A stretch of 35,428 nucleotides of DNA from contig JAHJUB010000002.1 of assembly GCA_018829455.1 (NCBI GenBank), forward strand, positions 1-35,428, written 5' to 3'. Within the stretch, counting starts at the first letter, position 1. Every line of letters starts with the position of its first letter. Below the pieces are notes generated by a model that worked only from the letters and a program-made list of their open reading frames with translations, did no database searches and was not told where the DNA came from. Positions 2,584-35,126 of this stretch are shown piece after piece. The stretch comes from Candidatus Omnitrophota bacterium (lineage in GTDB: Bacteria; Ratteibacteria; UBA8468; MWAK01). Both the position numbers and the translations under genes were made by a program.

Positions 2584-2638
2584 GTAGGGGCGGGGTTACA
2601 TCCCCGCCCACGGGAGGGGACATAAGCCCCTCCCCTAC
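2584..2638. repeat. GTAG-headed hairpin doublet (REP/REPIN-like)
   Basis: GTAGGGGCGGGGTTACATCCCCGCCC, then ac, then the reverse complement of GTAGGGGAGGGGCTTATGTCCCCTCCC. These are two hairpin units in inverted orientation bracketed by GTAG...CTAC. Confidence 0.85.
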
Positions 2639-2666
2639 ACAAGATTACAGATGACAGGCGAATCGG

Positions 2667-3884
2667 TTAGAACAACTCGTCCCAAAAACGTCTGGCCTTA
2701 CTCACTGCTTTTTTAATAACTGACTTCCGGGGAGAATTCTGACTCTTATCTGTCTGATTTTCCACAGAAGCCTGCACCACACCTAACACCGCATTATAGG
2801 CCGGATTTTTCAAAACTTTTTCCCATCCGTGAAACCGATGAGCGGTCCCGATTCGAACCGGCATCTCCAGTTCCGTTTCCAAAAATTCCGGCAAACCCGG
2901 TAAAAGAGCGCCGCCTCCGCCCAAAACCAGACCCGCGGTAAACGCCGGACGGTATTTCAGAAAAATTGACCGAAAAGGAATCAACATATCTTTTAATTCT
3001 GCCTCGATAATCTCGGCTACCTCGCGGCGGTTGGTTGTTTGTTTGGATTCCCCCTGGACATTAGAGAGCGATAATTCCCGGGGTTCCACATCCAGCAGAC
3101 AGGAACCGTATTCCTTCTTGATTCTTTCCGACTCAATGGAGGTGGTTTTGAGACAAACAGCGAGGGCATAGTTAATCCGGTCGCCCCCGCGGCCCAGGAC
3201 TTCAATCTCCCGCAGGGTAGGTTCAAAAATCAAAAGAGTGGAAGCGCTTCGTCCAAAATCAAAATAAGCCACCCCGGATTCCAGTTCCTCCGGAGTAAGA
3301 ACCGCGTCGGCCGCCACCAACGGCGCAAAAAAGATTGACCTGGTTTCCAGATGTACTTCTTCCAAGCAACGCTTCAGGTCTTTAACCCGCTTAGCAGCAG
3401 CCGTCACCGTAAAGAGGCCGACACCGAGACGTTCACCGGACATTCCCACCGGATCCTTTATCTGCCGACGGTCATCCAACAGATACTCTTGAACTATGGT
3501 ATGAACAATTTCATATTCGGAAGAGGCGCCGGGAAAAGCTTTCTTAACTACTTCCTGCCGGTCAGTTTCCATCACCTCACCCTGGCGATTCCTGATTTCC
3601 AGAGACCCCTGTCTTTTGTCAACGCGGAAATAATCTCCAAAAAGACACAGGTTTACGGAACGGATCGCTTTACCGGATAAGGACTCCGCTTCCATCACGG
3701 CCTTTTCCACCGTAGCGCTCAATTCTGGAATGCTGGTAACCGCGCCGTTTTTCAACCCCACCGTGGGAACAGTGGCAAACCCCAAAACTTCAAAACCGGC
3801 GCCGCGGGGAGTCGCCACGACAACCGATGTTTTATCCGAACCGATTTCAACGCCGGCCAAAAAATCGTTTCCGTTTGTTGCCAT
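2667..3884 (-). CDS. ftsA: Cell division protein FtsA (actin-like ATPase)
   Basis: 405 aa, located between ftsQ and ftsZ. It has an actin-fold phosphate motif (VEIGSDKTSVVV) and GGGALLPGLPEF near the C-terminus. Confidence 0.93.
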   Translation of the reverse strand: MATNGNDFLAGVEIGSDKTSVVVATPRGAGFEVLGFATVPTVGLKNGAVTSIPELSATVEKAVMEAESLSGKAIRSVNLCLFGDYFRVDKRQGSLEIRNRQGEVMETDRQEVVKKAFPGASSEYEIVHTIVQEYLLDDRRQIKDPVGMSGERLGVGLFTVTAAAKRVKDLKRCLEEVHLETRSIFFAPLVAADAVLTPEELESGVAYFDFGRSASTLLIFEPTLREIEVLGRGGDRINYALAVCLKTTSIESERIKKEYGSCLLDVEPRELSLSNVQGESKQTTNRREVAEIIEAELKDMLIPFRSIFLKYRPAFTAGLVLGGGGALLPGLPEFLETELEMPVRIGTAHRFHGWEKVLKNPAYNAVLGVVQASVENQTDKSQNSPRKSVIKKAVSKARRFWDELF

Positions 3885-3892
3885 AGGATTTT

Positions 3893-3942
3893 GTAGGGGT
3901 CGGATTCATCCGACCCGCGGGCGCCATAAATGGCGCCCCTAC
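3893..3942. repeat. GTAG-headed hairpin doublet, 50 nt
   Basis: GTAGGGG-TCGGATTCATCCGA-CCCGCGGG-CGCCATAAATGGCG-CCCCTAC. The terminal CTAC contains the ftsQ stop codon (TAG, 3939-3941). Confidence 0.9.
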
Positions 3943-4682
3943 GTTTTTTCTACATTTACTTCCGGTGCCGGCAAAAAGACCGGGTCATCAAAACGCAGGT
4001 CAAGATACTTATATCTTAAACCTTTCTGTTGAAATTCAGCAAGTAACTGACGAAAAACAGATAGTTTTTCTGCGAGAGACTCCCTCGGCAAATAAATCGT
4101 CTCACCGGTATTAAGGGCAAGGGTCAGGAAACCGGGCGAAAATGCCACCGATTGCAGAGAAACCAAAGACCGGCAATGGTCAAAAACAGAGACAGCCGGC
4201 AAGATTGAACCGGGTAAATCAGCAAGCGTTAAACCGTAAATCTCCAACGCCGGTTTATCGGAGCATCTTTCCTCCGGAACAATCATCCCATCCCTGGTTA
4301 CTAAAAAACGCCTGGTCGGCAGCACAAGATACGCAAAAGGAGCCCGCGGGATGACCGAAATATGCAGAACGTCGGGGAAAGTGCGGTGAACGGTTACCCC
4401 GGCAACCCAGGGGTCACGCCTGGCCCGGGCGGCTATCTCCGACAGGGAAACCGTGAATATGTTCCGACCGCAAAAAGATGAAAGGTCAAGGTTTGGGGCG
4501 TCCACCGTAACTTTTTTAATTTTGAAGAGCGGGCTGTAAAAAATACTCATAGACACTAAATAGACGATATAAACAAGCGCTGGAATTGCGGCCCCAAAAA
4601 CCAGAAAAGGCCAGGAACATTTCCAGTGATTTTCCTGTTTTGTGCGTCTGCTTTTAAATTTTTGCGCGCTTCTTTTTTTCAT
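3939..4682 (-). CDS. ftsQ: Cell division protein FtsQ (POTRA domain, N-terminal TM)
   Basis: 247 aa with a basic N-terminus, one TM helix (WPFLVFGAAIPALVYIVYLV), then a POTRA-like region. It sits in the conserved ddl-ftsQ-ftsA-ftsZ position. Confidence 0.85.
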   Translation of the reverse strand: MKKRSAQKFKSRRTKQENHWKCSWPFLVFGAAIPALVYIVYLVSMSIFYSPLFKIKKVTVDAPNLDLSSFCGRNIFTVSLSEIAARARRDPWVAGVTVHRTFPDVLHISVIPRAPFAYLVLPTRRFLVTRDGMIVPEERCSDKPALEIYGLTLADLPGSILPAVSVFDHCRSLVSLQSVAFSPGFLTLALNTGETIYLPRESLAEKLSVFRQLLAEFQQKGLRYKYLDLRFDDPVFLPAPEVNVEKT

Positions 4683-4708
4683 ATCAAAAAATTATTGGGC
4701 TGTTAAAT

Positions 4709-4800
4709 GTAGGGGCGGGGACTTACCCCCCTGACAAGGGGGGCAAGGGGGGTTTACATCCCCGCCGCCCGCGGTTTGACAGGCGAGACGCCTGTCCTAC
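4709..4800. repeat. Composite GTAG-hairpin element with nested insertion
   Basis: The unit GTAGGGGCGGGG..TTACATCCCCGCC is the same as at 2584, but here its loop is interrupted by about 32 nt carrying its own CCCCCC-TGACAA-GGGGGG hairpin. It is followed by ACAGGCGAGACGCCTGTCCTAC. The terminal CTAC holds the ddl stop codon. Confidence 0.85.
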
Positions 4801-5681
4801 TGTCTTTCTCGGGCCAATTCCACTAACTGTCTGGTTAATTCTCCGAAGGAAATACCGGCTGCGGCCGCCGCCTCCGGAAAGAGACTGGTTGCGGTGAAAC
4901 CCGGTATCGTATTAACATCCAAAAGATAAGGGTTTCCTTTTTGGTCAATGATAACCTCGCTGCGCGAAAGACCGCGGCATCCCAATAACCGGTGCGCGGC
5001 AAGCACCACTTCACCCGCCCGGTTTACCCATTTCCGCGGAAGTTCCGGCGGTATCAGATGCTTACTTCCGCCCGGCGCGTATTTTGCCTGGTAATCATAG
5101 AAACCGCTGGCCGGCACAATCTGAATGGCCGGCAGTATCCGGGGGTTTTCATTACCCAGGATGCCGATGGTAATTTCAATTCCGGGAATGAACTTTTCCA
5201 TCAGAATCCTCGCGTCGTATTTTCGGGCAAGGTCAAGAGCAGCCGTCAGGCCGGCTTTCTTTTTGACGATGGAAATTCCCAGCGTGGAACCGCCGTGAAC
5301 CGGCTTGACAACTAACGGAAGGTCTCGCGGCAGACAGACCGGCGGAACCAATAATCCGGCCGAGACGAAGAGTTGCTTGGAAAGAATTTTGTCCATAGCC
5401 AGGGCGCTGGCCAATATCCCGCTCCCGGTATAAGGCAATCCGATAGTCTCCAGAAATCCCTGAATCGTTCCGTCCTCTCCCTTACCGCCGTGCAAAGCAA
5501 TGAAAACAGCATATACATTCTTCACACCCAACAATTTTCCGGGAAAATCCGGTTTAATCGGGTCTAAAACCTTTACGACGAAGCCGGCTTCTTTCAGGGC
5601 TCGGGCCACACCAATCCCGCTGTGAAGAGAAACCTCCCTTTCCGGAGAATCTCCACCGGCCAATACCACCACGGTTTTCAT
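4797..5681 (-). CDS. ddl: D-alanine--D-alanine ligase
   Basis: 294 aa with an ATP-grasp fold and typical motifs (ALHGGKGEDGTIQGFLE, LLDVNTIPGFT). A 4-nt overlap with the murB stop suggests translational coupling. Confidence 0.95.
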   Translation of the reverse strand: MKTVVVLAGGDSPEREVSLHSGIGVARALKEAGFVVKVLDPIKPDFPGKLLGVKNVYAVFIALHGGKGEDGTIQGFLETIGLPYTGSGILASALAMDKILSKQLFVSAGLLVPPVCLPRDLPLVVKPVHGGSTLGISIVKKKAGLTAALDLARKYDARILMEKFIPGIEITIGILGNENPRILPAIQIVPASGFYDYQAKYAPGGSKHLIPPELPRKWVNRAGEVVLAAHRLLGCRGLSRSEVIIDQKGNPYLLDVNTIPGFTATSLFPEAAAAAGISFGELTRQLVELARERQ

Positions 5682-6532
5682 ATAATTTTTATTTCCAGTT
5701 CCAGATTAACGCTAAATTTATCGTAGACCGCTTCCCGTATCTTTGCGATTAAACCCAGCACGTCAGCAGCGGTGGCATTATCAACGTTGAGGATGAAATT
5801 GGCGTGCTTATCCGAAACGACCGCGCCTCCCTGGCGCCACCCCTTACAGCCGGCCGACTCAATCAGGCGCCCGGCCGCTTCACCGATTGGATTCTTGAAT
5901 ATGGAACCGGCGGATGGATACCCTCCGGGCTGGCTGTTGTTTCGCCCGGAAATATGAGCGTTAATTTTCTGTTTGATTTCATCGTTCCGCTCAACCGGTT
6001 TCGCCTCCAGGCTTGCGGAAACAATAAACGGAAAACGGGCCAAATTGGAAGAGCGGTAGGAAAAAGATGCTTCCGCCGCGATTAGTTCTACTTCCTCCAG
6101 ATTTTCATCCAGCGCTTTTATCCCGGCGACCACTTCAGAAACAGACCTTTCTTTAATTCCGGTATTCATGAGTAAAACGCCGCCGAGTGACCCGGGAATT
6201 CCGGCCAGAAATTCCAGTCCGGCCAGGTTATATTTTACCCCAAATTTTAGTATTTGCGAAACAAGAGCGCCGCTTTCCGCCAGAACATACTTATCGGTCC
6301 GCGAAATCCGGTTAAGCCGCCGGGTGGAAATAACGATACCATCAAAACCTTCATCCCGGACCAGAAGATTACTGCCGGCGCCCAGGATAAAAAATGGTTG
6401 GCTTTTCTCCCTCGCCTGACCGATTAGTTCTTTTACCTCGTAGAGGTTCTCCGGTTCCGCAAAAAGAGCGGCCCTGCCTCCAATCTTAAAAGTGGTGTGG
6501 CCGGCTAAAGGTTCGTTGGGTTTGATTAGCAT
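5678..6532 (-). CDS. murB: UDP-N-acetylenolpyruvoylglucosamine reductase
   Basis: HTTFKIGG, GAGSNLL and SAGSIFKNP motifs. Start set at ATG 6532 (MLIKPNEPL). The track ORF begins at an upstream TTG (6550). Confidence 0.93.
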   Translation of the reverse strand: MLIKPNEPLAGHTTFKIGGRAALFAEPENLYEVKELIGQAREKSQPFFILGAGSNLLVRDEGFDGIVISTRRLNRISRTDKYVLAESGALVSQILKFGVKYNLAGLEFLAGIPGSLGGVLLMNTGIKERSVSEVVAGIKALDENLEEVELIAAEASFSYRSSNLARFPFIVSASLEAKPVERNDEIKQKINAHISGRNNSQPGGYPSAGSIFKNPIGEAAGRLIESAGCKGWRQGGAVVSDKHANFILNVDNATAADVLGLIAKIREAVYDKFSVNLELEIKII

Positions 6533-6568: not shown

Positions 6569-6727
6569 GGACGCAGATGTACGCAGAAACAACAGGATAA
6601 CGCTAAATGATTATTCTTTTGTAGTCGCCAACCTTGGTTGGCTCTTTTAAAACGCCGAGCAAGCTCGGCAACTACTATAAAGTAATCTTTAATCTGTATC
6701 TGCGATTATCTGCGGTAATCTGCGTCC
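6569..6727. promoter_or_regulatory. 10-bp-phased heptamer repeats in inverted arrangement (candidate operator/iteron-like sites) around the murB upstream region
   Basis: ACGCAGA occurs at 6571 and 6581. ATCTGCG occurs at 6698, 6708 and 6718, with exact 10-bp spacing. The outermost copies form a 10-bp inverted repeat, GGACGCAGAT (6569-6578) against ATCTGCGTCC (6718-6727). The left pair abuts a candidate murB promoter: minus-sense TTGTCT 6565-6560, 16-nt spacer, TATTTT 6543-6538. Confidence 0.5.
6621..6675. repeat. GTAG-headed hairpin doublet (GTAGTyGCC subtype)
   Basis: GTAGTCGCCAACCTTGGTTGGCTC, a 9-nt spacer, then the reverse complement of GTAGTTGCCGAGCTTGCTCGGC. The same unit types recur at 33925 and 34768. 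Confidence 0.9.
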
Positions 6728-6741
6728 AGATGAATTGTGCC

Positions 6742-8754: not shown

Positions 8755-8839
8755 GCGACCCTGAAAGGGTCGCACTACGTTCGGGAAATGTAGGGGCGCC
8801 ATTCATGGCGCCCGCGGGCTTGATGAATCAAGCCCCTAC
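8755..8839. repeat. GTAG-hairpin units: one single unit plus a 50-nt doublet
   Basis: Single unit: GCGACCCTGAAAGGGTCGCACTAC (8755-8778, head on the minus strand). Doublet: GTAGGGG-CGCCATTCATGGCG-CCCGCGGG-CTTGATGAATCAAG-CCCCTAC (8790-8839). Confidence 0.9.
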
Positions 8840-9075: not shown

Positions 9076-9208
9076 GTTTCAATCCACGTTCCCGAGCGGG
9101 GAACGACATTTTCCCAAAATTTTCAGAAACAGCACCTCTCATCATCGTTCAATTTATTTTACCTCAAACTTTACCGATTTGTCCATCACAAGACGTTGTG
9201 AAATAATA

Positions 9209-9217
9209 TGCTATAAT
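9209..9217 (+). promoter_or_regulatory. Extended -10 promoter element immediately upstream of queF
   Basis: TGcTATAAT lies only 8 nt before the queF ATG (9226). No SD lies between them. Confidence 0.5.
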
Positions 9218-9225
9218 AATGTCAT

Positions 9226-14352: not shown

Positions 14353-14365
14353 TTTATCCTCCTTC

Positions 14366-14393
14366 GGTCGCCATAGCCTTGGCGAAGGCGACC
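14366..14393. repeat. Intergenic hairpin sharing a 21-mer with the repeat array at 22343
   Basis: GGTCGCC...GGCGACC stem. The minus-sense sequence CCTTCGCCAAGGCTATGGCG matches plus-strand CCTTCGCCAAGGCTACGGCG at 22344-22363 with one mismatch. It sits directly upstream of the SD of the DUF1318 gene. Confidence 0.7.
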
Positions 14394-18735: not shown

Positions 18736-18741
18736 TATTTT

Positions 18742-18771
18742 ATTTTAACATTAGCGCGGAAGAGGCGTCAA
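18742..18771 (-). promoter_or_regulatory. Candidate promoter of queH
   Basis: Minus-sense TTGACG (18771-18766), 18-nt spacer, TGtTAAAAT with the hexamer ending at 18742. The queH GTG begins 7 nt after the hexamer. Confidence 0.55.
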
Positions 18772-18800
18772 TTAAAAGATTTATTCTTTAATGGTCTCTA

Positions 18801-18809
18801 TGTTACAAT
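18801..18809 (+). promoter_or_regulatory. Extended -10 element (TGtTACAAT) of the duplicated plus-strand promoter
   Basis: The hexamer ends 6 nt before GTG 18816. An identical element lies at 21538-21546. Confidence 0.5.
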
Positions 18810-18815
18810 GTAAAG

Positions 18816-18890
18816 GTGGAATGGAAATCGTTCGGGGATAATATCTCGGCAGCCGGCAAATATTTCTTTTCGTCCCGCTCAACAGTCTAA
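18816..18890 (+). pseudogene. Internally deleted remnant of a paralog of the 21891-22268 gene
   Basis: GTG-GAA-TGG-AAA-TCG-TTC-GGG-GAT-AAT-ATC (MEWKSFGDNI) matches the start of the 125-aa ORF. It then jumps to sequence matching 22148-22180. The deletion lies between AACCGGCA/CCGGCA direct repeats. The frame ends after 24 codons. Confidence 0.75.
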
Positions 18891-18900
18891 GTGGTTTTAG

Positions 18901-20328: not shown

Positions 20329-20375
20329 GTTTCCGCTCCTTACTCTTTTTTTCAAAAATAAATTCAAGATAATTT

Positions 20376-20405
20376 ATTTTAACATTAGCGCGGAAGAAGT
20401 GTCAA
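20376..20405 (-). promoter_or_regulatory. Candidate promoter of the HD-GYP gene (duplicate of the queH promoter)
   Basis: Minus-sense TTGACA (20405-20400), 18-nt spacer, TGtTAAAAT (hexamer 20381-20376). It is followed by a 5'UTR of about 45 nt with an SD. Confidence 0.55.
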
Positions 20406-20409
20406 TTAA

Positions 20410-21507
20410 CGAAGTGCCTCATCTAAAATCTACTCGAAACCAATACGATGCCTCACGTAAGAAATCTACACCAAAACGTACCGCTTCTGGTAAGATAAAC
20501 AGAACAAAGGCTCCCCTTCGCGCTCAGTGCTACGGCGAGCCAAAGGAGGCGGTGAATGGGGCTAACGATGAGCGAGAAGAAAGCAATCACCAAAGAAGTG
20601 GCAAAGCGGTACCGGAAGGCAAGAAAAAAGGAGAAAGGCGGGATGTTGAATGAGTTTGTGGCGACAACCGGCTATAACCGCAACTACGCTGCCTGGGTAT
20701 TGCGCAACTGGTACAGGGAGATAGGCCGGTATCTTCACAACGGGGATAAAATCGTCCTGGTAAAAGAGAGAAATGGCAGGTTAAGGGAAAGTCCACTACA
20801 AAACCCGGAACGCTTCTTAAGAGCCAGATACCAATCAGGACCTTTGCCGATTGGAATGAGAATAAGCCCGGCTTCATTGAAGCAGACCTGGTGGGACACG
20901 ACGGGGGCAGCCCTGTGGGTATCTACGGCCAGACGCTTACCGCCACCGATATTTTCACCGGCTGGACCGAGACGGAAGCGGTCAAGAACAAAGCCAGAAT
21001 CTGGGTCTTCGCGGGCCTGAAGAACATCAGAGGGAGATTCCCCTTCCCTATCCTGGGTCTGGACTCTGACAACGGCGGTGAATTCATCAACCACCCGCTC
21101 TACGAATACTGCCTATCCGAGGAAATCACCTTCACTCGCGGTCGCTCATACCGGAAGAACGATAACTGCTATGTAGAGCAGAAGAATTATTCGGTGGTTA
21201 GAAAGATGGTGGGCTACCGCCGGTATGACACCGAAGAAGAACAGGAAATACTCAACCGGCTTTACCGGTTTCTTTCCTTCTACACCAACTACTTCCAGCC
21301 CTTAAGGAAACTGATTAAGAAAGAACGGATAGGCGCGAAGGTCAGAAAGACATACGACACCCCCAGAACACCCTACCGCCGCGTCATGGAAATACCCGAA
21401 ATACCGGAGAGAACAAAAGGAAGTGCAAAAACAGGAGGACTTCGTGTATAATTTAAGTGAGGCGGCGGAATCTATCCTTCGTATAGATTCTTACGTGAGG
21501 CATTAGG
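20410..21507 (+). mobile_element. Decayed insertion sequence (rve/DDE transposase type), ~1.1 kb, with 5-bp target duplication ATTAA
   Basis: ATTAA at 20405-20409 and 21508-21512 flanks the element. The unoccupied paralogous site (18767-18780) reads GTCA-ATTAA-AAGATTT. The imperfect terminal repeats contain TGCCTCA..TAA.AATCTA..CG at both ends, and each end carries a second subterminal copy. Confidence 0.8.
20556..21451 (+). pseudogene. rve-family (integrase core, DDE) transposase, frameshifted and apparently internally deleted
   Basis: The N-terminal HTH part (MSEKKAITKEVAKRYRKARKKEKGGMLNEFVATTGYNRNYAAWVLRN) is in one frame. The catalytic part (STTKPGTLLKSQIPIRTFADWNENKPGFIEADLVGHDGG...LDSDNGGEFINH...VEQKN) is in another frame that opens at about 20750. 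The junction leaves far less sequence between HTH and core than I expect for this family. Confidence 0.8.
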
Positions 21508-21537
21508 ATTAAAGGGTTTATTCTTTCACGGCCTCTA

Positions 21538-21546
21538 TGTTACAAT
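21538..21546 (+). promoter_or_regulatory. Extended -10 element (TGtTACAAT) upstream of the 125-aa gene, now separated from it by the MITE
   Basis: Identical to 18801-18809. Without the 335-bp insert and one TTA copy, the hexamer would end 6 nt before ATG 21891. Confidence 0.5.
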
Positions 21547-21550
21547 ATTA

Positions 21551-21885
21551 GGGGTTACAAAAGAATAAAATTACCTATTTGCCAGAGCTGATTTTGGAGC
21601 GAGACAAGGAGCGAAGAAGATTGGTTGACACACTGCAGTCTCCCTGCCATACGCCGAAGAGACGAAGAAGGTACAACTTCTGGCAGGGTTGTCACTGTAC
21701 TACTCAATCAATAAGCGACGCAGTCGCAGCCCAAAAGCACCTGGCCCTTCGGGGAATCCCGTCTTTGGGTCATTGCGGCGTTGCTCCTCGGTTATGTGCC
21801 ACAGTGGGCACAGAACCTTCGTCGCGCCTGGCACTGACCTTAAATCCGGGACTCCAAATAGGTAATTTTATTCTTTTGTAACCCC
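21551..21885. mobile_element. MITE-like non-autonomous element, 335 bp, 31-bp perfect terminal inverted repeats, TTA target duplication
   Basis: GGGGTTACAAAAGAATAAAATTACCTATTTG (21551-21581) is the exact reverse complement of 21855-21885. TTA flanks both ends (21548-21550 and 21886-21888). The paralogous site at 18801-18825 is uninterrupted and of matching length. The internal 273 bp is GC-rich with several local hairpins and shows no convincing coding signal. Confidence 0.8.
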
Positions 21886-21890
21886 TTAAC

Positions 21891-22268
21891 ATGGAATGGA
21901 AATCGTTCGGGGACAATATCTCAATAACCGGCAAACCAAGGGAAGTGCGCTCGTTAAAACTGCCGGATGCGCTCGGCAATTTCCGGCGTTACCGGGTTAC
22001 CACCACCTGGGATTTAGACCGGTACAATTTCACCCGGGCGCCGGCCGTCGGACGGCTGGCCAAAGACAATAAGGAGGGTAAAATCGGCGCGGTGGTTATG
22101 GGTCGCAGCGGCGGTTATCTAAAAATCGGACGGTTTCCGAACCGGCAGACGTTTCTTTTTGTCCCGCTCAACAGTCTCAGTCAAAAAGTAAAAAACGGCC
22201 TTCTCAAAAACGAGAACTTGGACCTCTTCCTGGAAGGAAACCTGCTCTTCGCCCGCCAAAGGGAATGA
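21891..22268 (+). CDS. Hypothetical protein, 125 aa
   Basis: Intact ORF (MEWKSFGDNISITGKPREV...). A decayed paralog lies at 18816. No family recognised, and no SD lies upstream. Confidence 0.6.
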   Translation: MEWKSFGDNISITGKPREVRSLKLPDALGNFRRYRVTTTWDLDRYNFTRAPAVGRLAKDNKEGKIGAVVMGRSGGYLKIGRFPNRQTFLFVPLNSLSQKVKNGLLKNENLDLFLEGNLLFARQRE

Positions 22269-22305: not shown

Positions 22306-22637
22306 GTAGGGGCGCCATTCATGGCGCCCGCGGGTCGGATCCTCCTTCGCCAAGGCTACGGCGGACGCGGTAAATCCGACCCCTACATTAACAGCGCCAA
22401 ACAAGCTTGGCAACTACAAATAAAAAGCGACCCTGAAAGGGTCGCGCACTACGTAGGAACGGGAATAGTTAAAGTAGTGTGGATTCCCGCTTACTATCCG
22501 CCTTCGCTAAAGCTTCGGCGGACACAGTCCGCGGGAATGACAGAGGGGTGACAGGCGACCCTGAAAGGGTCGCACTACGAAAGAGACAGGCGGGACGCCT
22601 GTCCTACTACGCGGGTCGGATGAATCCGACCCCTACA
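22306..22637. repeat. Array of at least 8 GTAG-headed hairpin units of several subtypes (BIME-like mosaic)
   Basis: The units are: 22306-22386 (a doublet whose TCGGAT/ATCCGA hairpin loop carries a 32-nt insert), 22396-22417, 22427-22452, 22453-22496, 22555-22578, 22586-22607 and 22613-22637. Most have their GTAG head on the minus strand. Confidence 0.88.
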
Positions 22638-23722: not shown

Positions 23723-23781
23723 GCGACCCGGAAAGTTTATCCGCCGAAGCCAGTTTTTGGCGTAGGCGGGGGTCGCACTAC
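23723..23781. repeat. GTAGTGCGACC-type hairpin unit with insertion in its loop
   Basis: GCGACCC-GGAAAG[34-nt insert with CCGCC...GGCGG hairpin]GGGTCGC-ACTAC. The CTAC contains the rpoBC stop codon (23778-23780). Confidence 0.8.
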
Positions 23782-26700
23782 TTAGCGTCTAAGGGGTTTT
23801 CCCTCTTTTTTGAACCCGAATGCTTTTTGACGCCGGTCTCAGCGTCTAATGGATTTATTGACTCCTTCTTTTTGGAACCCGAATGCTTTTTATCTCCGAA
23901 CTCAGCATTGGCGGATTCCGCTTCTTTATCCTTCATCCGATTCTCCCTGACCGTCCGGAGGAAAAAGCCGGTGCCGGCCGGAATCAACCGTCCCAAAATC
24001 ACGTTTTCCTTGATTCCCAGGAGCGGGTCATCCACCCCCATCAAAGCCGCGTCGGTCAGAACGCGCAGGGTCTCCTGGAATGAAGCGGCGGAAATAAAAC
24101 TTTCACTCGCCAGAGCTACCCGCGTGATACCCATAACCAGGGGCTGCAGTGTGGCCTGTTGTCCACCTTCGGCTTCAATCCGTTCGTTCTCCCGGGTAGC
24201 GCGCACACGGCTGATTGCCTCCCCCTCCAGGAAGAGCGTATCGCCGGGTTTTTCAATACGCACCCGGGAAAGCATCTGACGGATGACTATCTCAATATGC
24301 TTATCGTTCAGGGCAACGCCCTCCAGACGGTAAACCGACTGGATTTCGTTCAGCAGATATTCGTGAACTTTGTGTTCACCGCCGATGCGCAAAAGGTCGT
24401 CAAGATCCACCGCGCCTTCGGTCAGTTTTTCACCAACCTGGACATAAGAACCATCACCCACCAGAAGGTGTTTGTCGAAAGGAATCAGGTAACTCTTGAC
24501 CAGGTCGGAAACAACGCTGGAAATTTTAATCACCCGCTGGTTCTTTTCGTTTATCTCGGTGGATACTTTTCCGTCTATCTCCGAAAGAATGGCCGGATTC
24601 TTAGGCCGCCGCGCTTCAAAAAGTTCGGCAATCCGGGGCAGGCCGCCGGTAATATCCTGAACGCGGCCGGCCAACCGGCGTGGAATACGCGCCAGGTTAT
24701 CGCCGGCCAGCACTTTCTGACCATTCTCCACCATCGGATGCGTATCCACCGGCAAATAATGCGAGTCTATCTTATTCCCGGCGGAATCCCTGACCACAAC
24801 CACCGGCGCAATATCTTCCTTGTGGCTGATGATGACTTTGTGGGAGTGCTTGGAAACTTCATCCAACTCTTCTTTAAAAGTAACACCGAGCTTAAGGCCT
24901 TCGTAACTGGCCACCCCTGACTTTTGCGCCACAATGGGCAGCATGTAGGGGTCGCGCTTCAAGAGCGAAGTCGCTTCTTTTTCCCGGGTTTTGGAATGAA
25001 CAACGTCTCCGTCTTTAACCTGCAGGATGTCGCCAACCTGGGCCAGGTAGTGCTCCACTTCCCGGCCGCGCTCGTCAATCAGCGCTAACTTTGCTCCCCG
25101 ATTCAGAACCACCGTCTGACCCAGCCGGTTAACGGCCGAGGAAAGACCCTGAAATTTAACTTTATAATGAGCCGCTTCTTTTTTATGCTTACTGTCTTTT
25201 TGCTGGCGGACTTTTACCTCAGTTTCGCCCACAATCCGGCTGGCCGTTCCGCCGATATGGAAAGTGCGCAGGGTAAGCTGGGTGCCGGGTTCGCCGATGG
25301 ACTGAGCGGCCACGATACCCACCGCTTCTCCTATTTCAACCATCTTGCCGGTGGCAAGATTCCAGCCGTAGCATTTCTGGCAGAGTCCCCGCGGCGCTTT
25401 ACAGGTTAAAACCGAGCGTATCCGGAACTTTTCAATACCCATCTCCTCAATCTGGGCGGCAATTCTCTCGCTGATCAATTCGTTACTCTCTACAATTACC
25501 TCATCGTTGACAATATCCACAATCCGGTCAACCGCCACCCGGCCGATAATACGGTCACTCAGTGAAACCATCAGCCTTTCTCCATCCCAAACCGGGGTGA
25601 CCATAACGCCGGAATTGGTCTGACAGTCGTCAACGGATATCACCATATCCTGAGAAACGTCAACCAGGCGCCGCGAGAGATACCCGGCGTTAGAAGTTTT
25701 AAGGGCGGTATCAACCAGCCCTTTGCGGCCGCCGTGAGTGGAAATAAAATATTCCATGACCGTAAGGCCTTCCCGGAAGTTGGCGATAACCGGCTGCTCA
25801 ATAATCTCTCCGATGCCGCCGGTAATCTTCTTGGTCGGCCTGGTCATCAAGCCGCGCATGGCCATCAACTGACTCACCTGCTGCTTGTTGCCGCGGGCTC
25901 CGGATTGAACCATCAGATAGATGGGATTAATCAAGAATTTATCTTCCAGGTCACTCTTCAGCGAGGCAAAAAGATGCTCGCTCAAGCGGCTGGTGCAGGA
26001 GGTCCAGGTGTCAACAACCTTATGGTAGCGTTCGCCTTCGGTAATGATACCCTTACGGTAATCACTCTCAATCCGATGCACCTCTTTCGCGGTGGTTTCC
26101 ACCAGTTCTTTTTTGTTCTTCGGAATCGCCAGGTCGCGAATACCGATGGTCAGGCCGGAGCGGGTGGCAATCTGAAAACCAACATCCTTTGCCCGGTCCA
26201 GGAACCGGGCTGTTTGTTCGTAACCAAAACGGTTGTAAATTGTCTTAATCATCCGGCCCAGAATCTTGCCGTCCACCAAATTATCATGATATTCCATGCC
26301 GCCGGGTAAAAGTTCATTGAAAAGAATACGGCCCGGCGTAGTCTCAATAATCTGGCCATGCATTCTAACCCGGACCGGCTGGTGATAGGAAAGATATTCG
26401 GCGTCCAACTTCCTTAAAACCTCATCGGCGCCGGCGTAAACGGCAAATTTCCCCTCCTCCGGAGAAAGGGTGTTGTTTTCAAGAGTCAGGTAATAACAGC
26501 CCAGGAGCGCTTCCCGGCTCAGGTTGATGATGGGCTTGCCGCTGGACGGGGAGAAAATATGCGTTGACGCATTCAGTATCAGCTGGGCCTCCAGCTGCGC
26601 CTCTACGGAAAGCGGCACGTGGACCGCCATCTGGTCACCGTCAAAATCCGCGTTAAAGGCGGTGCAAACCAGCGGGTGAAGTTTAATTACGTTTTCCTCA

Positions 26701-29700
26701 ATCAACCGCGGGTAAAAAGCCTGAATGCTCAACCGGTGTAAAGTCGGCTGCCGGTTAAGGAGAATCGGGTGGTTGCGGGTCACATCTTCCAGAATTTCCC
26801 AAACTTCCGGGTCGTTCCGTTCCAGGGCTCTTTTGGCGCTGCTGATGGTATGAACGTATTCCCGGCGCCTTAATTCTCTTAAGATGAAGGGCGCAAATAA
26901 CTCCAGGGCCATATGCTTGGGCAGCCCGCATTCGCTCAACTTCAAGTCCGGGCCAACGACAACCACGGCTCTTCCGGAATAGTCAACCCGCTTACCGAGA
27001 AGGTTCTGGCGGAAGCGCCCCTGTTTGCCGCGCAGCGTATCGGCCAGTGATTTCAGGGGACGGCTGTTCCGACCCAGAACCTGCGGTCCGTGCCGGCCGT
27101 TATCAAAGAGGGCGTCAACCGCCTCCTGGAGCATCCGTTTTTCATTGCGGATGATGATATCAGGCGCATGCAGTTTCAACAACCGCTTAAGCCGGTTATT
27201 CCGGTTGATGATACGCTGATAGAGGTCATTAAGGTCGGAAGTGGCAAACCGGCCGCCTTCCAGAGGAAGCAGCGGTCTTAAATCAGGCGGAATGACCGGA
27301 ATAACGTCCGTAATCATCCATTCCGGCCTGGTGTTGGTGCGCAGCAAGCCGTCAACGATCTTCAACTTCTTGATGATTGCCCGGCGTTGCCCCTGGCTGG
27401 AACGAATCTTAATAAGTTCTTTCTGCAGGACGTCTTTTTCTTTCTCCAGATTAATATCCTCCAGCAATTCCTTGATAGCCAGCGCGCCAATTTCCGCCTT
27501 TAGTTTCGGAAATTTGACCAGCGTCTCCCGATATTCCTTTTCGGTAATCAGGTCTTTCACCTGGTGCGGGCTGTCGGCCGGGTCCAGAACCAGATATCGC
27601 TCAAAATAGAGCACTAATTCCAGATGGTTCTGGGACATATCCAGCAGGGTGCCCATCCAGTTGGAAACAGATTTAAAGATCCAGACGTAACTAACGCAAG
27701 TCGCCAATGGAATATGACCCGCCCGGGTGCGCCGGACATCCGAAGTGGTCACTTCCACACCGCACCGGTCGCAGACAGTGCCCCGGTATTTAACCTTCTT
27801 ATACTTGCCGCAGGCGCATTCCCAGTCTTTAACCGGACCAAAAATCTTTTCACAGAAGAGGCCGTCTTTTTCGGCCTTAAACGTACGGTAGTTTATCGTC
27901 TCCGGTTTCTTGATTTCGCCGTGCGAAGATGACCTTACCACCTCCGGGGACGCCAGGGAAATGGATACCACCTCCTTTTCTCCGGTCTTCTTAACCAGTT
28001 TAATGTCAAAACCCAGACCCTTCAACTCGCTCATCAAAACGTTGAATGACTCCGGGGATTGGTAGTAATCAAAATCCCGGTCCTTGACGATATTCTCATA
28101 AACTTTCTTCCGGCCCTGGATATCATCGCTCTTCACCGTCAGGATTTCCTGCAGGATATTGCTGGCGCCGTAACCTTCCAGAGCCCAGACTTCCATTTCG
28201 CCGAAGCGCTGACCCCCGAATTGAGCCCGGCCGCCCAAAGGCTGCTGGGTCACCATGGAATACGAACCGACGCTGCGGGCGTGAATCTTGTCGTCCGCCA
28301 GGTGGTAAAGTTTCATCATGTAAATATAGCCGCAGGTGGTCTTTACGTCAAAAGGATTACCGGTTACACCGTCGTAAAGTTGAATCTTGCCGTCTGCCGG
28401 CAGGCCCGCCTTCAGAAGCAGTCCGCTAATTTGCTCTTCGCTGGCGCTGTTAAAGATCGGGGTCTCCACCGAAAAACCGAGGGTTTTAGCCGCCCACCCC
28501 AGATGGGTTTCCAAAATCTGACCCACGTTCATTCGGGAGGGAACGCCTAAGGGATTAAGAACCACGTCAACCGGTGTTCCGTCCGGCAAAAACGGCAGGT
28601 CCTCCTCCGGAACAATGCGGGCGATTACGCCCTTGTTTCCGTGCCGGCCGGACATCTTGTCGCCGACGGAAACCGGCTTTTTAATCGCGACCTGAACCAC
28701 GACCTTCCGGACCACGTCGGTACCTAATTCGTCGCCCTGCTTGATGTGTTGAATCTCGCGCTTGGCTTCTTTCTTTATCTCTTCCAGGCGCTTTTCGAGT
28801 TTCTCACAAAGAGAATTCAACGCTTTTTGCTTTTCCGAGTTGGACGTTTTGAGGGATAAGAGAGCGGAAAGCGATGGTTTTTCCTTGATTTTCTGCTGCG
28901 GCAAAATTTCCATCACGCGACGGCCGGCTTGCTTCTGGAGCTGGTCGGTGAGTTCCTTCCGGCGTTTCTCCACCTCACTAATCATAACCTGCCGCTTACT
29001 TTCCTCCTCCGTTGATTTCTCTTTGTCGGAAACCCGTTCAAACTTACGAACATCTACCACGATTCCCGAAATACCCGGCGGAGCGTAAAGTGATGTATTA
29101 TCAACTTCTCGGGCCTTCTCTCCGAAGATTACGCGCAGAAGACGCTCTTCCGGGGTCAGTTCTGTTTCGCTTCTGGGTGTAACCTTGCCGACCAGAATAT
29201 CGTTAGGTTTTATGTGGGCGCCGACCCGGATAATACCCTCTTCATCCAGATTAGCCAGGGTCTCTTCTCCTACATTGGGGATGTCACGGGTAATCTCTTC
29301 CACCCCTAATTCCGTTTCCCGCGCTTCCGATTCAAACTCCTTGATGTGAATGGAAGTAAACGTGTCGTCTTTAACCAGTCGTTCGCTGAGTACGATCGCA
29401 TCCTCAAAGTTATATCCGCGCCAGGGCAGAAAAGCCACCAGGACGTTCTGGCCGAGAGCCAACTGACCGCTCGCATCCACCGCCGGACCGTCAGAAATCA
29501 AATCACCTTTCTTGATCTTTTGGCCCGCCTGCACCAACGGCCGCTGATTGAAAACAGTATCCTGGTTAAGATGCTGAAATTTTAAGAGCTGGTATGTCTT
29601 TTCGGTTTCCAGGTCTTCCGGTTTATTTTGTTCGGCGGAGATTACAATTTTAGAACCATCCACGTAGGTAACCACACCATCTTCTTCGGCCTTGACGATT

Positions 29701-31595
29701 ACGCCGGAATCCCGGACCACCACGCTTTCAATGCCGGTTTTAACCAGGGGCGAAGACGGCCTTAACAAAGGCAGCGCCTGGCGCTGCATATTAGAACCCA
29801 TCAGGGCGCGGTTGGCATCATCATGTTCCAGGAAAGGGATGAGGGAAGTGGAGACGCTTACCACCTGACGGGCGGAAACATCAATGAAGTCCACTTTTTC
29901 CACCGGAAATTTGGGGAAAATACCGCGGTAACGGACCAGGACTTCTTTTTCAATAATTTTGCCGTTTTGATCTAACTGGGTGCTGGCCGGAGCAATACGA
30001 TAATTATCCTCTTCGTCGGCCGAAAGATATTTGATTTCATCTATCACTACGCCATTTTTTACGACCCGGTAAGGGGACCGCAAGAAACCGAGTTTATCCA
30101 CCCGGGCATAGGTAGCCAGCGAAGTAAGAATACCGATATTACCGCCTTCCGGGGTTTCAATCGGGCAGATGCGTCCGTAATGGGTGTAATGAACGTCACG
30201 CACTTCAAATCCGATGCGTTTACGTTCGGAAAATACCCCTTCGCCGATCGCGGTCAGACGCCTTTTATGCGTAAGTTCCGCAAGAGGGTTGGTCTGGTCC
30301 ACTAACTGCGAATAGGGACTTCGGGCAAAAAAGTCTTTAATGGCTGAGGAAAAATTGCGGCTGTTTACCAATTCCTGCGGGGTCACTTCTTCCGTTTTGG
30401 AAAAATTAAGACGGTCCTGGACCAACCGGGCCAGCCGGGATAAACCGATTTCCACTTGTTCGGCCACTAATTCTCCGACCATCCGCACCCGCTTGTTGCC
30501 CAGATGATCAATATCGTCTACCGAATAGACCATCTGCGCATTGCCTATTTCGGATTTATCCTCTCCCTGCTTTGCATCAAGGTCACCGAACTCACCGGAC
30601 GCAAAATCCTGATTTTGATACAACCCGAAAAGATAAGACAGTGTGCCGATAACATCTTCTTTTTCCAGAACAAGTTCCTGGGAAGAACGTTTTAACTTCT
30701 TGTTTAGTTGGCTGCGTCCGGCTTCGGAAAGAGCATACGTTTCAGGAAAAAAGAAAAGGTGGGTAAAGAAATCGCCGGCTTTCTTCTTGCTGATCGGGTC
30801 TCCGGGTCGAAAAAGACTGTATATTTCCAACAGCGCCTCTTCCTGGCCGGCCAGGGGTTTCCGCTCCAGGGTATTCTTCCAAAGTTCGTAACCATCCCCG
30901 CTAACTGTTCCTTTCGGAAAAAATAGTTTGGTCAGTTCTGCCTTGTCGTTATACCCGAGAGCCGAAAAAAAGGTTGACGCTGAAACCTTCTTTTTGCCCA
31001 GGTGGGCGTAAAGAATGTTCCCGCCGTCGGAACGAAATTCCAGCCACATGCCCCGCTTGGAGACGATGCGCGCCGAATACTCCCGGGGAGAGGAATTTTC
31101 TTCCTTAAAATAGACTCCGGGCGAACGCTGGAGGCGGGAAATGATAACGCGTTCCACGCCGTTGATAATAAACGTCCCGCGTTCGGTCATCAATGGTATT
31201 TGGCCTAAAAATACTTCGTGACCGTGTTTTGTTTCCCGCACCTGGATAAGTTCACCGGTCTCTTTGGAACGCCGGATAATGCGCAGACAAATACGCAGGG
31301 CGGAGCCGTAGGTTAAACCGGCCAGCTTGCATTCCGCAATGGAATGGGCCGCCGGTTCCAGAAGGTAATATCCGTATTCCAGGCTCAGCGTGCCGTTGTT
31401 ACTGACAATCGGAAAATTTTTTCGAAAAACTCCCTCCAGTCCCTGGTCCTTCCGCAATGCTCGGTCTGCGCCTTTCTCTTTCGGGGATATTTGGAGAAAT
31501 TCATGGTAGGAATTTAACTGTGCAACCAAAAGATTGGGGATTTCCAATTCTTTAAAATCTTTCTTGCCGCAGTAAAGAGATTCCGCTTTTTTCAT
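23778..31595 (-). CDS. rpoBC: Fused DNA-directed RNA polymerase beta-beta' subunit (RpoB-RpoC single polypeptide, 2605 aa)
   Basis: A single uninterrupted ORF. The beta portion ends ...[19 protein letters not shown] (residue 1200, codon 27996-27998). An 11-aa linker [11 protein letters not shown] follows. Beta' homology then begins at [62 protein letters not shown] and the other beta' motifs are present. Confidence 0.95.
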
Positions 31596-31623: not shown

Positions 31624-31748
31624 GTAGGGAGGCAACCCGGAAAGGGTCGCACTACGAAAGAAACAGGCAGAACGCCTGTCCTACGTTTGGGAGGGGACGA
31701 AGCCCCTCCCCTACATTACGACGCGGGTTAAATAACTCCGGCCCCTAC
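31624..31748. repeat. Array of 4-5 GTAG-headed hairpin units between rplL and rpoBC
   Basis: Units at 31624-31655, 31663-31684 (ACAGGCAGAACGCCTGTCCTAC), 31689-31714 (GGGAGGGGACGAAGCCCCTCCCCTAC) and a degenerate GTAGGGG head at 31745-31748 that contains the rplL stop. Confidence 0.85.
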
Positions 31749-32146: not shown

Positions 32147-32177
32147 TTTTATCTCCTTTTATTTTCCGGTATTTCTG

Positions 32178-32699: not shown

Positions 32700-32735
32700 C
32701 GTTTTGTTTAGGTAATTTTTTACACGTTACTAATT

Positions 32736-32785
32736 GTAGGGGCTTGATTTATCAAGCCCGCGGGCGCCATGAATGGCGCCCCTAC
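32736..32785. repeat. GTAG-headed hairpin doublet, 50 nt, between rplA and rplJ
   Basis: GTAGGGG-CTTGATTTATCAAG-CCCGCGGG-CGCCATGAATGGCG-CCCCTAC. The CTAC contains the rplA stop codon (32782-32784). Confidence 0.9.
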
Positions 32786-33887: not shown

Positions 33888-33924
33888 AAATTAATTGGAC
33901 GCTGATTTTCGCAGATAAAAATTG

Positions 33925-33980
33925 GTAGTTGCCGAGCTTGCTCGGCGCGGTTAACAGAGCCCGGCAAGCCGGGCGACTAC
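33925..33980. repeat. GTAG-headed hairpin doublet (GTAGTyGCC subtype) between nusG and rplK
   Basis: GTAGTTGCCGAGCTTGCTCGGC, a spacer, then the reverse complement of GTAGTCGCCCGGCTTGCCGGGCTC. An orphan GTAGTTGCTGAG head lies at 33999. Confidence 0.88.
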
Positions 33981-34012
33981 AAATAATACCAAGATACTGT
34001 AGTTGCTGAGAA

Positions 34013-34534: not shown

Positions 34535-34538
34535 AAAT

Positions 34539-34739
34539 TTAAAATTTACTCAGAAAAAGCTGAACTATTTTTGAGAATATGGCGTCTATGATTCCGGCAA
34601 ACAAAGCCAGCATGATTGTCAACGCCAACACAAAAAAGATCAACTGCTTTAAAACTGTCTTTTTGGGCCAGGATATCCGGCGGAACTCCAGTTTAACCCC
34701 ATCAAAATATTCCTTGAATCCCTGGAGTATTTTATTCAT
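34539..34739 (-). CDS. secE: Preprotein translocase subunit SecE
   Basis: 66 aa from ATG 34739 (MNKILQGFKEYFDGVKLEFRRISWPKK..., then a single TM), immediately upstream of nusG. The longer track ORF extends through a repeat element. Confidence 0.88.
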   Translation of the reverse strand: MNKILQGFKEYFDGVKLEFRRISWPKKTVLKQLIFFVLALTIMLALFAGIIDAIFSKIVQLFLSKF

Positions 34740-34767
34740 AAAATGTGGTTTCCAAACTGTATTTACT

Positions 34768-34824
34768 GTAGTTGCCAACCTTGGTTGGCTCGGTGTAAAA
34801 GAGCCCGGCAAGCCGGGCGACTAC
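34768..34824. repeat. GTAG-headed hairpin doublet between tRNA-Trp and secE
   Basis: GTAGTTGCCAACCTTGGTTGGCTC, a spacer, then the reverse complement of GTAGTCGCCCGGCTTGCCGGGCTC. Both units also occur at 6621 and 33957. Confidence 0.9.
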
Positions 34825-34831
34825 AAACCCC

Positions 34832-34870
34832 TCGACTCCCTTTGTCAAGATGCAGGCCTGGAGGGAGTCG
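34832..34870 (-). repeat. Duplicated copy of the tRNA-Trp 3' end plus trailer (39 nt, perfect)
   Basis: Identical to 34952-34990. It covers the T-loop 3' part, the T-stem, the acceptor 3' strand and discriminator of tRNA-Trp, plus 19-20 nt of trailer. The offset is exactly 120 bp. Confidence 0.9.
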
Positions 34871-34972
34871 GCGGTCTCACTTCAAAGCGTTCGACTCGGC
34901 CCCCCGCTGGTATTGCTTCCTAATCAGTCTCAATACCTTACTTCGCTCCGTTCGACTCCCTTTGTCAAGATG

Positions 34973-35045
34973 CAGGCCTGGAGGGAGTCGAACCCCCAAC
35001 CTACGGATTTGGAATCCGTTGCTCTGCCAGTTGAGCTACAGGCCT
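34973..35045 (-). tRNA. tRNA-Trp (anticodon CCA), 73 nt, CCA end not encoded
   Basis: The manual cloverleaf has acceptor AGGCCTG/CAGGCCT, D arm GCTC-AACTGGCA-GAGC, anticodon stem ACGGA/TCCGT with loop TTCCAAA, variable loop AGGTT, T arm GGGGG-TTCGACT-CCCTC and discriminator G. It sits in the classic position between rpmG and secE. Confidence 0.93.
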
Positions 35046-35101
35046 AAAATCAAGGCACAGAGGCACAAAGTAGCGGCAAAGCGATAGTTTTGCATCTTTC
35101 A

Positions 35102-35126
35102 GGGCAGAGCTTCGCTCTGCAGCTAC
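35102..35126. repeat. GTAG-headed hairpin directly at the rpmG stop
   Basis: Minus-sense AAG-TAG-CTGCAGAGC-GAA-GCTCTGCCC. The 7-bp stem GCAGAGC/GCTCTGC spans 35104-35120. The TAG of the GTAG is the rpmG stop codon. Confidence 0.65.

Follow-up and report, generated by a model that had tools for sequence, protein, structure and literature searches.

What are the short GC-rich hairpins, each headed by the tetranucleotide GTAG, that recur in the intergenic gaps of contig JAHJUB010000002.1 (assembly GCA_018829455.1, Candidatus Omnitrophota bacterium), of which positions 1 to 35,428 were analyzed here and are referred to as the window? A sequence-only reading of this DNA had likened them to repetitive extragenic palindromes (REPs) and bacterial interspersed mosaic elements (BIMEs). 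According to our analysis, the units are very probably REP elements of the GTAG super-family arranged in BIME-like hetero-doublets and clusters, which would behave as non-autonomous single-stranded DNA hairpins whose spread depends on REP-associated tyrosine transposases (RAYTs) acting in trans. The earlier proposal is supported by the structure of the units, by their excess over shuffled sequence, by their turnover between related genomes, and by RAYT genes of relatives that have the same units beside them. They belong to a kind of element that is already known, here in a host lineage new for it and at high local density.

Units were called by a script requiring a GTAG head, a perfect hairpin starting 0 to 4 nt later, a stem of at least 6 bp, and a loop of 3 to 8 nt. 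The 35.4-kb window contains 28 such perfect hairpins, while 100 dinucleotide-preserving shuffles, the comparison suggested by the sequence-only reading, yielded a mean of 0.86 (standard deviation, 0.85; maximum, 4). Since the bare tetranucleotide is not enriched (142 occurrences versus 125 expected), the signal resides in the combination of head and hairpin. All of these units but three (25 of 28) are intergenic, and the intragenic ones, at 7582, 8470, and 10613, are probably due to chance. When degenerate and split copies are included, about 31 intergenic units can be counted, in agreement with the at least 30 that had been claimed, whose sequences are all present where they had been located; together they cover ~845 nt, or 2.4% of the window, at a local density of ~0.8 to 0.9 units per kb. 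The claim that they occupy almost every intergenic gap was right as to high occupancy but overstated, since only 13 of the ~20 gaps of at least 30 nt contain units, and the divergent or promoter-type gaps at 9076-9225, 18736-18900, and 21452-21578 are devoid of them. The window has a G+C content of ~51%, and the majority of its genes lie on the minus strand. As in the REP GTAG super-family, the units are palindromes of 20 to 40 nt with an unpaired GTAG at one end, they occur in many and mainly extragenic copies (as judged on 35 kb plus 1 kb of the genome), and they form inverted dimers and clusters in a BIME-like manner. They fall into four sequence classes:

Class A: GTAGGGG-N4-ATTYAT-N4'-CCC; 14 copies, A' included.
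Class A': variants GGGGCGGGG / GGGGAGGGG; copies pooled with those of class A.
Class B: GTAGTGCGACCC-TTTCA-GGGTCGC; 5 copies.
Class C: GTAGGACAGGCG-TCY-CGCCTGTC; 3 copies.
Class D: GTAGTYGCC-N3-CTTG-N3'-GGC; 7 copies and one D-like pair.

The individual units and the repeats associated with them are the following:

2584..2609, plus strand: class A' unit GTAGGGGCGGGGTTACATCCCCGCCC, half of the ftsA-ftsZ doublet.
2612..2638, minus strand: class A' unit GTAGGGGAGGGGCTTATGTCCCCTCCC, partner half of the ftsA-ftsZ doublet.
3893..3916, plus strand: class A unit with stem TCGG, in the ftsQ-ftsA gap.
3919..3942, minus strand: class A unit with stem CGCC; GTAG provides the TAG stop of ftsQ.
4709..4770, plus strand: split class A' unit with a nested insert of ~33 to 36 nt (~4721-4753), intact in relative L242.
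4778..4800, minus strand: class C unit GTAGGACAGGCGTCTCGCCTGTC; GTAG provides the ddl stop codon.
6569..6731, no strand: ~165-nt composite in which terminal inverted repeats (GGACGCAGAT...ATCTGCGTCC) enclose the class D doublet; found at other sites in L239 and L178.
6621..6642, plus strand: class D unit GTAGTCGCCAACCTTGGTTGGC.
6654..6675, minus strand: class D unit GTAGTTGCCGAGCTTGCTCGGC.
8755..8778, minus strand: class B unit GTAGTGCGACCCTTTCAGGGTCGC.
8790..8813, plus strand: class A unit with stem CGCC.
8816..8839, minus strand: class A unit with stem CTTG.
14358..14393, no strand: class E-like hairpin, core CCTTCGCCAAGGCTATGGCGA on the minus strand, immediately upstream of a DUF1318 gene; conserved in L239.
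22306..22329, plus strand: class A unit with stem CGCC, start of an array.
22332..22386, minus strand: class A unit with stem TCGG, its loop holding a nested class E module (~22341-22371); L010 has an orthologous copy.
22392..22417, minus strand: degenerate class D unit GTAGTTGCCAAGCTTGTTTGGCGC.
22427..22452, minus strand: class B unit, GTAGTGCGCGACCC variant.
22480..22545, plus strand: hairpin without GTAG head, ATTCCCGC...GCGGGAAT, with a 31-nt class E insert (~22498-22532); empty site in L010.
22555..22578, minus strand: class B unit.
22585..22607, minus strand: class C unit.
22613..22636, minus strand: class A unit with stem TCGG.
23723..23781, minus strand: split class B unit with a ~35-nt CCGCC...GGCGG hairpin insert; GTAG provides the rpoBC stop codon.
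31632..31655, minus strand: degenerate class B unit.
31663..31684, minus strand: class C unit.
31689..31714, minus strand: class A' unit GTAGGGGAGGGG...
31720..31748, minus strand: degenerate class A unit; GTAG provides the rplL stop codon.
32736..32759, plus strand: class A unit with stem CTTG, in the rplA-rplJ gap.
32762..32785, minus strand: class A unit with stem CGCC; GTAG provides the rplA stop codon.
33925..33946, plus strand: class D unit, in the rplK-nusG gap.
33959..33980, minus strand: class D unit GTAGTCGCCCGGCTTGCCGGGC.
34768..34789, plus strand: class D unit, in the secE-tRNA-Trp gap.
34803..34824, minus strand: class D unit.
35070..35126, no strand: degenerate class D-like doublet, downstream of tRNA-Trp.

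Eight tight GTAG...CTAC doublets start at 2584, 3893, 6621, 8790, 22306, 32736, 33925, and 34768, seven of which had been recognized before, that at 22306 being added here; a degenerate doublet is found at 35070. In these doublets GTAG is outermost and a spacer of 2 to 13 nt separates the halves, each of which folds into its own hairpin with GTAG and CTAC left unpaired; z lies between -5.4 and -5.9 in class A/A' doublets and at -2.9 in class D. The two stems differ in all eight clear doublets of the window, just as had been remarked, and hetero-dimers make up 28 of the 28 tight doublets over all loci fetched. The arrays likewise lie close to where they had been placed, at 22306-22636 and 31632-31748. 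Conservation of structure under co-varying stem sequence holds for the class A frame, since in all DNA fetched the N4 segments are perfectly complementary in 360 of 376 matches to GTAGGGG-N4-ATNNAT-N4-CCC, with 19 different stems. Five upstream genes (ftsQ, ddl, rpoBC, rplL, and rplA) take the TAG of their stop codon from the head of a unit, and in all 11 solitary units GTAG lies on the minus strand, which is the G-rich and coding one. This strand would be the template of lagging-strand synthesis, and the bias of the solitary units fits the strand-specific insertion of Y1-type enzymes.

The same features raise the alternative that the hairpins are host-selected RNA elements, i.e., 3' stabilizers, attenuators, or terminators that arose and were kept in place, instead of mobile DNA. 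The units lie downstream of genes within operons, the solitary ones are all sense-oriented, the covariation of the stems is compatible with selection on RNA structure, and E. coli REPs are reported to stabilize mRNA, according to the background given in PMC3733652. We nevertheless deem this origin highly improbable. A T-run, as expected of intrinsic terminators, follows only 1 of the 31 units (22427), and a scan of the window against Rfam returned tRNA-Trp as its sole match, with the units assigned to no RNA family and with no L10, L1, or other leader. Furthermore, identical 24-mers occur at unrelated sites in many phyla and the same units flank transposase genes, as detailed below, while the orthologous gaps of close relatives are empty or otherwise filled. 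As an account of how the units arose, the RNA-element reading is thus refuted for the most part, although an RNA role may exist as a secondary effect.

The turnover of the units was followed in five syntenic relatives, all on related Omnitrophota contigs: L010, which shares 85 to 89% nucleotide identity with the window, and L239, L240, L241, and L242, whose FtsQ proteins are 81%, 80%, 76%, and 90% identical to that of the window, respectively. The close relatives are labeled Candidatus Omnitrophota, and one FtsQ homologue is labeled Ratteibacteria. The orthologous gaps compare as follows:

ftsQ-ftsA gap: 54 nt with a doublet in the window, 5 nt in L241.
truA-murB gap: 209 nt in the window, 22 nt in L239.
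ftsZ-coaB gap: 11 nt in the window, 146 nt with three units in L241.
ftsA-ftsZ gap: class A' doublet in the window; in L239, the class D composite that the window carries between truA and murB.
rpsL-rpoBC gap: one split class B unit in the window, four different units in L010, the flanking genes being 89% identical.

Two exact pairs of empty and filled sites were also identified. The ATTCCCGC...GCGGGAAT hairpin of the window carries a 31-nt module in its loop that its counterpart in L010 lacks (alignment A3), and the insert of 33 to 36 nt that splits a class A' unit of the window is missing in L242, where the unit is uninterrupted (alignment A4). The sequence TTAC flanks the insert at 4721-4753 and TCCGC that at 22498-22532, but the indels can be placed in more than one way, and neither sequence is put forward as an insertion target or duplication. 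Since orthologous gaps are empty, differently filled, or exactly empty versus filled, the units are not fixed regulatory hairpins, which the sequence-only reading would have taken identical sequences at all sites in relatives to indicate; occupancy of orthologous sites is instead variable, as is characteristic of REPs. The unit density is 0.79 per kb in the window versus 0 to 0.45 per kb in those relatives that were chosen via FtsQ alone, and the sequence comparisons point to a dispersing family that has expanded in the lineage of the window. The window is matched by two contigs of the NCBI MAG GCA_043824295.1 (at least 99.9% identity) and, at 100%, by a contig from ENA. The near-identical strains L001, L245, and L246 (99.9 to 100%), which have no indels, are uninformative about gain or loss of units.

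A second family of hairpin repeats, lacking the GTAG head (TCATTCCCGC-loop-GCGGGAATG), occurs in the truA-murB and ftsQ-ftsA gaps of L240 and L242, where the window has REPs; further sites are window 22480-22545 and L010 3437-3466. Moreover, L239 carries a palindrome of ~200 nt (TTAAGGGTCTGTCTCATAATAAAATTGCC...GGCAATTTTATTATGAGACAGACCCTAAG, 6217-6435) in the DUF2582-asd gap, which measures 1 nt in the window; it is a mobile-looking element.

RAYT genes were searched for by tblastn, the first query being E. coli TnpA-REP, whose sequence was checked against PDB 4ER8, and the later ones newly found proteins. A regular expression for the HUH and Tyr motifs had returned no RAYT among 2247 open reading frames (ORFs) of the first 115 loci, the pattern being too strict, since tblastn later found them. 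RAYT-like genes flanked by class A units were identified in the following loci:

L117/L066: Omnitrophica GWA2_41_15.
L243: Omnitrophota metagenome-assembled genome (MAG) GCA_043797665.1.
L247, 3001-3399: Omnitrophota MAG GCA_043826355.1.
L244, 935-1399: shares its ENA sample and its coverage with L242, the closest relative.
L235: metagenome contig; the flanks include the exact CGCC/CTTG doublet of the window.
L119: Endomicrobiales.
L072: Pantoea.
L039: Ktedonobacteraceae.
L075: Polyangiaceae; gene interrupted by a unit.

The proteins linked to class A share a YDY..G.YF[VI]T N-terminus, the HUH motif, the sequence WQRNYYEH, and the Tyr motif YIQNNP, and the NCBIfam model that matches them best is NF047646, REP-associated tyrosine transposase. 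At E <= 1e-10, their family comprises at least 7985 members; JGI calls many of these RayT. One class A RAYT gene is flanked by units of several N4 stems, an argument for one enzyme acting on all members of the class. A second RAYT clade (FMPDHLHLL...YILxNPVRKGL), ~32% identical to the first, is flanked by class B units in L198, L152, L183, L155 (a remnant), and L229. In the related Omnitrophota L244 and L247, the class A RAYT shares the neighborhood RAYT-yjbQ-cupin-ligA, which suggests a stable, vertically inherited single-copy gene instead of a hopping insertion sequence. The proposed link between units and RAYTs is therefore upheld in that the same units flank Y1-HUH genes in relatives and in other phyla, but it does not come from the genome of the window itself.

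In L075 (3181-3767), a class A unit lies between the HUH and Tyr motifs of the RAYT gene and splits its reading frame. In several RAYTs, the final codons come from the flanking unit, giving tails of the type ...MNRTPT (cf. L235, 517-544).

A number of observations weigh against this assignment. As the sequence-only reading had stated, the window contains no RAYT gene: tblastn with six RAYTs gave a best E value of 0.4, and the units could be relics of a lost enzyme. The NF047646 scores of the class A-linked proteins (72.0, 60.3, and, for a truncated protein, 33.6 bits) are all below the curated cut-off of 80 bits, and these proteins are at or just under the Pfam cut-off for Y1_Tnp. Our searches found no RAYT for class C or class D, and the doublets of the latter are found within a composite bounded by terminal inverted repeats, which might move by another route. 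The strand bias of the solitary units is confounded with the direction of transcription. Finally, comparison with the 99.9 to 100% identical strains revealed no unit differences or indels, so that no very recent movement is documented.

Some of these points would agree with fossil REPs, i.e., a lineage that formerly had RAYTs, a genome that lost them, and a family that is now immobile. Besides the absence of a RAYT from the 35-kb window and of indels among near-identical strains, many copies are degenerate or interrupted, and loss of the REPtron is reported for many E. coli strains in PMC3733652. However, the close relatives L244 and L247 retain an intact RAYT at a conserved place, and the window has several-fold more units than its relatives together with many perfect identical copies, which suggests recent expansion. 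We therefore regard the fossil scenario as unlikely.

A further alternative concerns class D, the doublets of which, at least, could be the cores of a MITE (a miniature transposable element with inverted repeats) of ~165 nt whose movement would depend on a conventional transposase of the DDE type, the GTAG hairpins being carried along as passengers. In its favor, the composite GGACGCAGAT...ATCTGCGTCC with its internal class D doublet is ~90% identical at the truA-murB gap of the window, the ftsA-ftsZ gap of L239, and L178, and GTAG dimers inside longer palindromes are known according to PMC3733652. Yet class D doublets also occur with half a composite (33925) or with none (34768), no target-site duplication can be defined, and no matching transposase was found, the integrase core (rve) fragment at 20891-21451 being weak, below the Pfam cut-off, and at an unrelated position. 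Passenger status of the class D units thus appears quite unlikely, even more so than fossilization of the family. Readings of the hairpins as CRISPR, attC, or uptake sequences were discarded, since there are no regular spacers and no integrase or cas genes nearby and the hairpins carry a one-sided tag.

With the units taken as REPs mobilized by RAYTs, the following mechanism can be proposed, in which catalysis, the route via single strands and the replication fork, and any RNA-level effect are transferred from the literature on E. coli TnpA-REP and IS200/IS605. In transiently single-stranded DNA, a unit would fold into a GC-rich hairpin of 8 bp (6 bp in class D) with the 5' GTAG unpaired. The cognate RAYT would bind this hairpin, with GTAG as guide and cleavage context, and the strand would be cut and rejoined, by which units or doublets might be copied or moved to new intergenic sites, often right at the end of a gene. 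Cleavage and rejoining of single-stranded REP DNA at the GTAG context have reportedly been demonstrated only for E. coli TnpA-REP. There would be one type of RAYT per class, a subclass-2.4-type enzyme for class A and an enzyme of the second clade for class B. The class A enzyme presumably recognizes the constant frame, consisting of GTAG, the GGG/CCC base, and the ATTYAT top, while the middle four bp would vary freely provided that pairing is kept. As the partners of a doublet always differ, no long perfect palindrome would result. Units inserted downstream of genes would be transcribed and probably also form 3' stem-loops, for which a secondary role in the mRNA is plausible.

Besides the GTAG-headed units, the window contains a 31-nt module, CCNCCTTCGCYAARGCTWCGGCGGACRCRGT, here termed class E, which lies nested inside loops, both those belonging to units of classes A, A', and B and that of the hairpin without GTAG head. 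It was found in 16 places over the window and eleven other loci, and for one of these places there is an orthologous empty site. Class E may be a loop variant comparable to those that Di Nocera noted, or an independent element; that it is a separate, undescribed mini-element inserting specifically into hairpin loops, and hence a second tier of mobile hairpins nested in the fashion of Russian dolls, is an idea that we put forward tentatively and with more doubt than conviction. The less ordinary features of the locus are this nesting of hairpin modules in the loops of other hairpins and the density of the units. A class E-like hairpin at 14358-14393 overlaps the Shine-Dalgarno region of the DUF1318 gene and, unlike the other units, is kept in L239 (~120-160), the relative with 81% FtsQ identity; it could be a co-opted translational element.

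The units are not confined to the window, contrary to a possibility that the sequence-only reading had held out. The exact class A 24-mer GTAGGGGCGCCATTCATGGCGCCC was found in more than 115 stretches of species-representative genome contigs, the hosts of which include Armatimonadota, Myxococcota, Acidobacteriota, Chloroflexota, Ignavibacteria, Zixibacteria, Desulfobacterota-type MAGs, Pantoea/Erwinia, and several Omnitrophota, and it is almost always partnered by a unit of the same frame with another N4 stem; the class B 24-mer was found in more than 119 metagenome stretches. The presence of identical 24-mers in more than 12 phyla was dropped as proof of recent cross-phylum transfer, since the frame is conserved, many N4 variants exist per genome, and the search picked the CGCC variant.

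With regard to gene context, the units lie within conserved fts and rpl/rpo/nusG operons, as had been noticed, and the identities of the genes were confirmed by Pfam. A first block consists of coaBC-ftsZ-ftsA-ftsQ-ddl-murB-truA-asd, with comM, queH, and a PAS-HD gene coming next; a second block comprises rpsG-rpsL, a fused rpoBC (2605 amino acids), rplL-rplJ-rplA-rplK-nusG-secE, and tRNA-Trp. The fused rpoB and rpoC form a single ORF (23778-31595, minus strand) containing all Rpb2 and then all Rpb1 domains in order, and since the 2605-residue protein is also called in the NCBI and ENA copies of this DNA (L245 and L246), it is not an assembly error of the window. A segment of ~3 kb (18860-21891) is missing from L010; it contains a weak rve fragment along with the PAS-HD gene and two ORFs that are unassigned, is bracketed by duplicated intergenic pieces from the queH side (18736-18775/20370-20409, 18771-18816/21508-21553, and 18817-18860/21892-21935), and looks like an insertion or duplication scar. 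Two tiny Lys/Ala-rich ORFs on the plus strand (596-649 and ~731-802; MAKKAKKAAKKTAKKKK and VAKKVVKKTAKKP...), each preceded by a GGAGG site, are found in an AT-rich stretch upstream of coaBC, where NCBI annotates a gene of 48 amino acids.

These results extend the REP/RAYT system to Omnitrophota, an uncultured phylum related to the Planctomycetes-Verrucomicrobia-Chlamydiae (PVC) group. REPs account for about 1% of the E. coli chromosome, and their density in Omnitrophota can reach several-fold above this value, even within fts and ribosomal-protein/rpoBC operons. For annotation, the units explain odd palindromic gaps of 50 nt, TAG stop codons borrowed from repeats, and probably the fragmented assemblies of such MAGs. 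The constant frame with its freely covarying core of four bp also leads to a simple prediction, which can be tested, about the features of its REP that are read by a subclass-2.4 RAYT.

Among known systems, the REP/BIME elements and TnpA-REP of E. coli (PDB 4ER8) share with the units described here a 5' GTAG next to an imperfect palindrome, mosaic opposed doublets of two REP types, and a REP-flanked transposase gene (REPtron). The E. coli REPs are instead longer (~35 nt) with bulged stems, and the E. coli TnpA-REP, of subclass 2.2, is only 24 to 32% identical to the RAYT-like proteins beside these units. In the Pseudomonas REPINs, which are REP doublets (Bertels & Rainey), two inverted REPs likewise form the common unit and a single-copy RAYT resides at a conserved site (cf. 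L244 and L247). However, the halves of REPINs are mutual copies that pair into one long hairpin, whereas here the stems differ, in 8 of 8 doublets of the window and 28 of 28 over all loci, and fold separately, the arms not pairing with each other.

As to the enzymes, subclass 2.4 of TnpA-REP (PMC6006769, Quentin et al. 2018), which equals group 4 of Bertels et al. 2017, is characterized by the motifs NH[IFV]H, WQ, and YIxNNP, by the lack of a C-terminal extension domain, and by REPs inserted within the gene, occurs across many phyla in a scattered way compatible with horizontal transfer, and has as cognates "canonical long REPs" with three G-C pairs at the base of the stem. The class A-linked proteins and their units fit this description in the motifs xH[LI]H, WQ, and YIxNNP, in the stem base of three G-C pairs, in the spread over many phyla, and in the in-gene unit of L075, although in the proteins from Omnitrophota and Endomicrobiales the residue preceding the HUH histidines is T or A instead of N; the assignment to subclass 2.4 is one by motifs, with NCBIfam scores under the cut-off. 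Table S1 of PMC6006769 includes GTAGGGGCGCGATTCATCGCGCCC, an exact class A variant, as well as GTAGGACAGG-type REPs associated with a subclass 2.7 gene of Ignavibacterium, which class C resembles.

The closest correspondence is with the GTAG super-family itself (PMC3733652; Di Nocera, De Gregorio & Rocco 2013), for which the paper defines 24 families and reports tagged REPs from 8 phyla. It describes sub-families whose stems carry complementary changes, genomes that harbor several families, each served by a REPtron of its own, and hetero-dimers as a means of avoiding long palindromes. It also mentions Opitutus terrae, of the PVC group, as rich in GTAG REPs in tight dimers with spacers of 1 to 2 bp, complex loops of the GCGG/CCGC type, and GTAG supplying TAG stop codons. 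The supplement of that paper holds no unit sequences, and the string GTAGGGGCGC matched only unrelated papers among literature main texts. The stem diversity under one head motif, considered unusual by the sequence-only reading, is thus not so, since many stems per head, hetero-doublets, several classes per genome, and operon positions had already been described (PMC6006769 and PMC3733652), and the locus opens no new question because its main features are already published. In common with the super-family, the units have an unpaired GTAG beside a GC-rich stem of 6 to 9 bp with a short loop, GTAG-outside dimers ("HH" in that paper), hetero-dimers, clusters, complementary stem changes, multiple families per genome, positions between co-directional or convergent genes, TAG stop codons, and complex loops of the GCGG/CCGC type. 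They differ from it in their host phylum, Omnitrophota, which is not among the phyla named for GTAG repeats in the parts of PMC3733652 used here, and in a high local density, the units making up 2.4% of the DNA.

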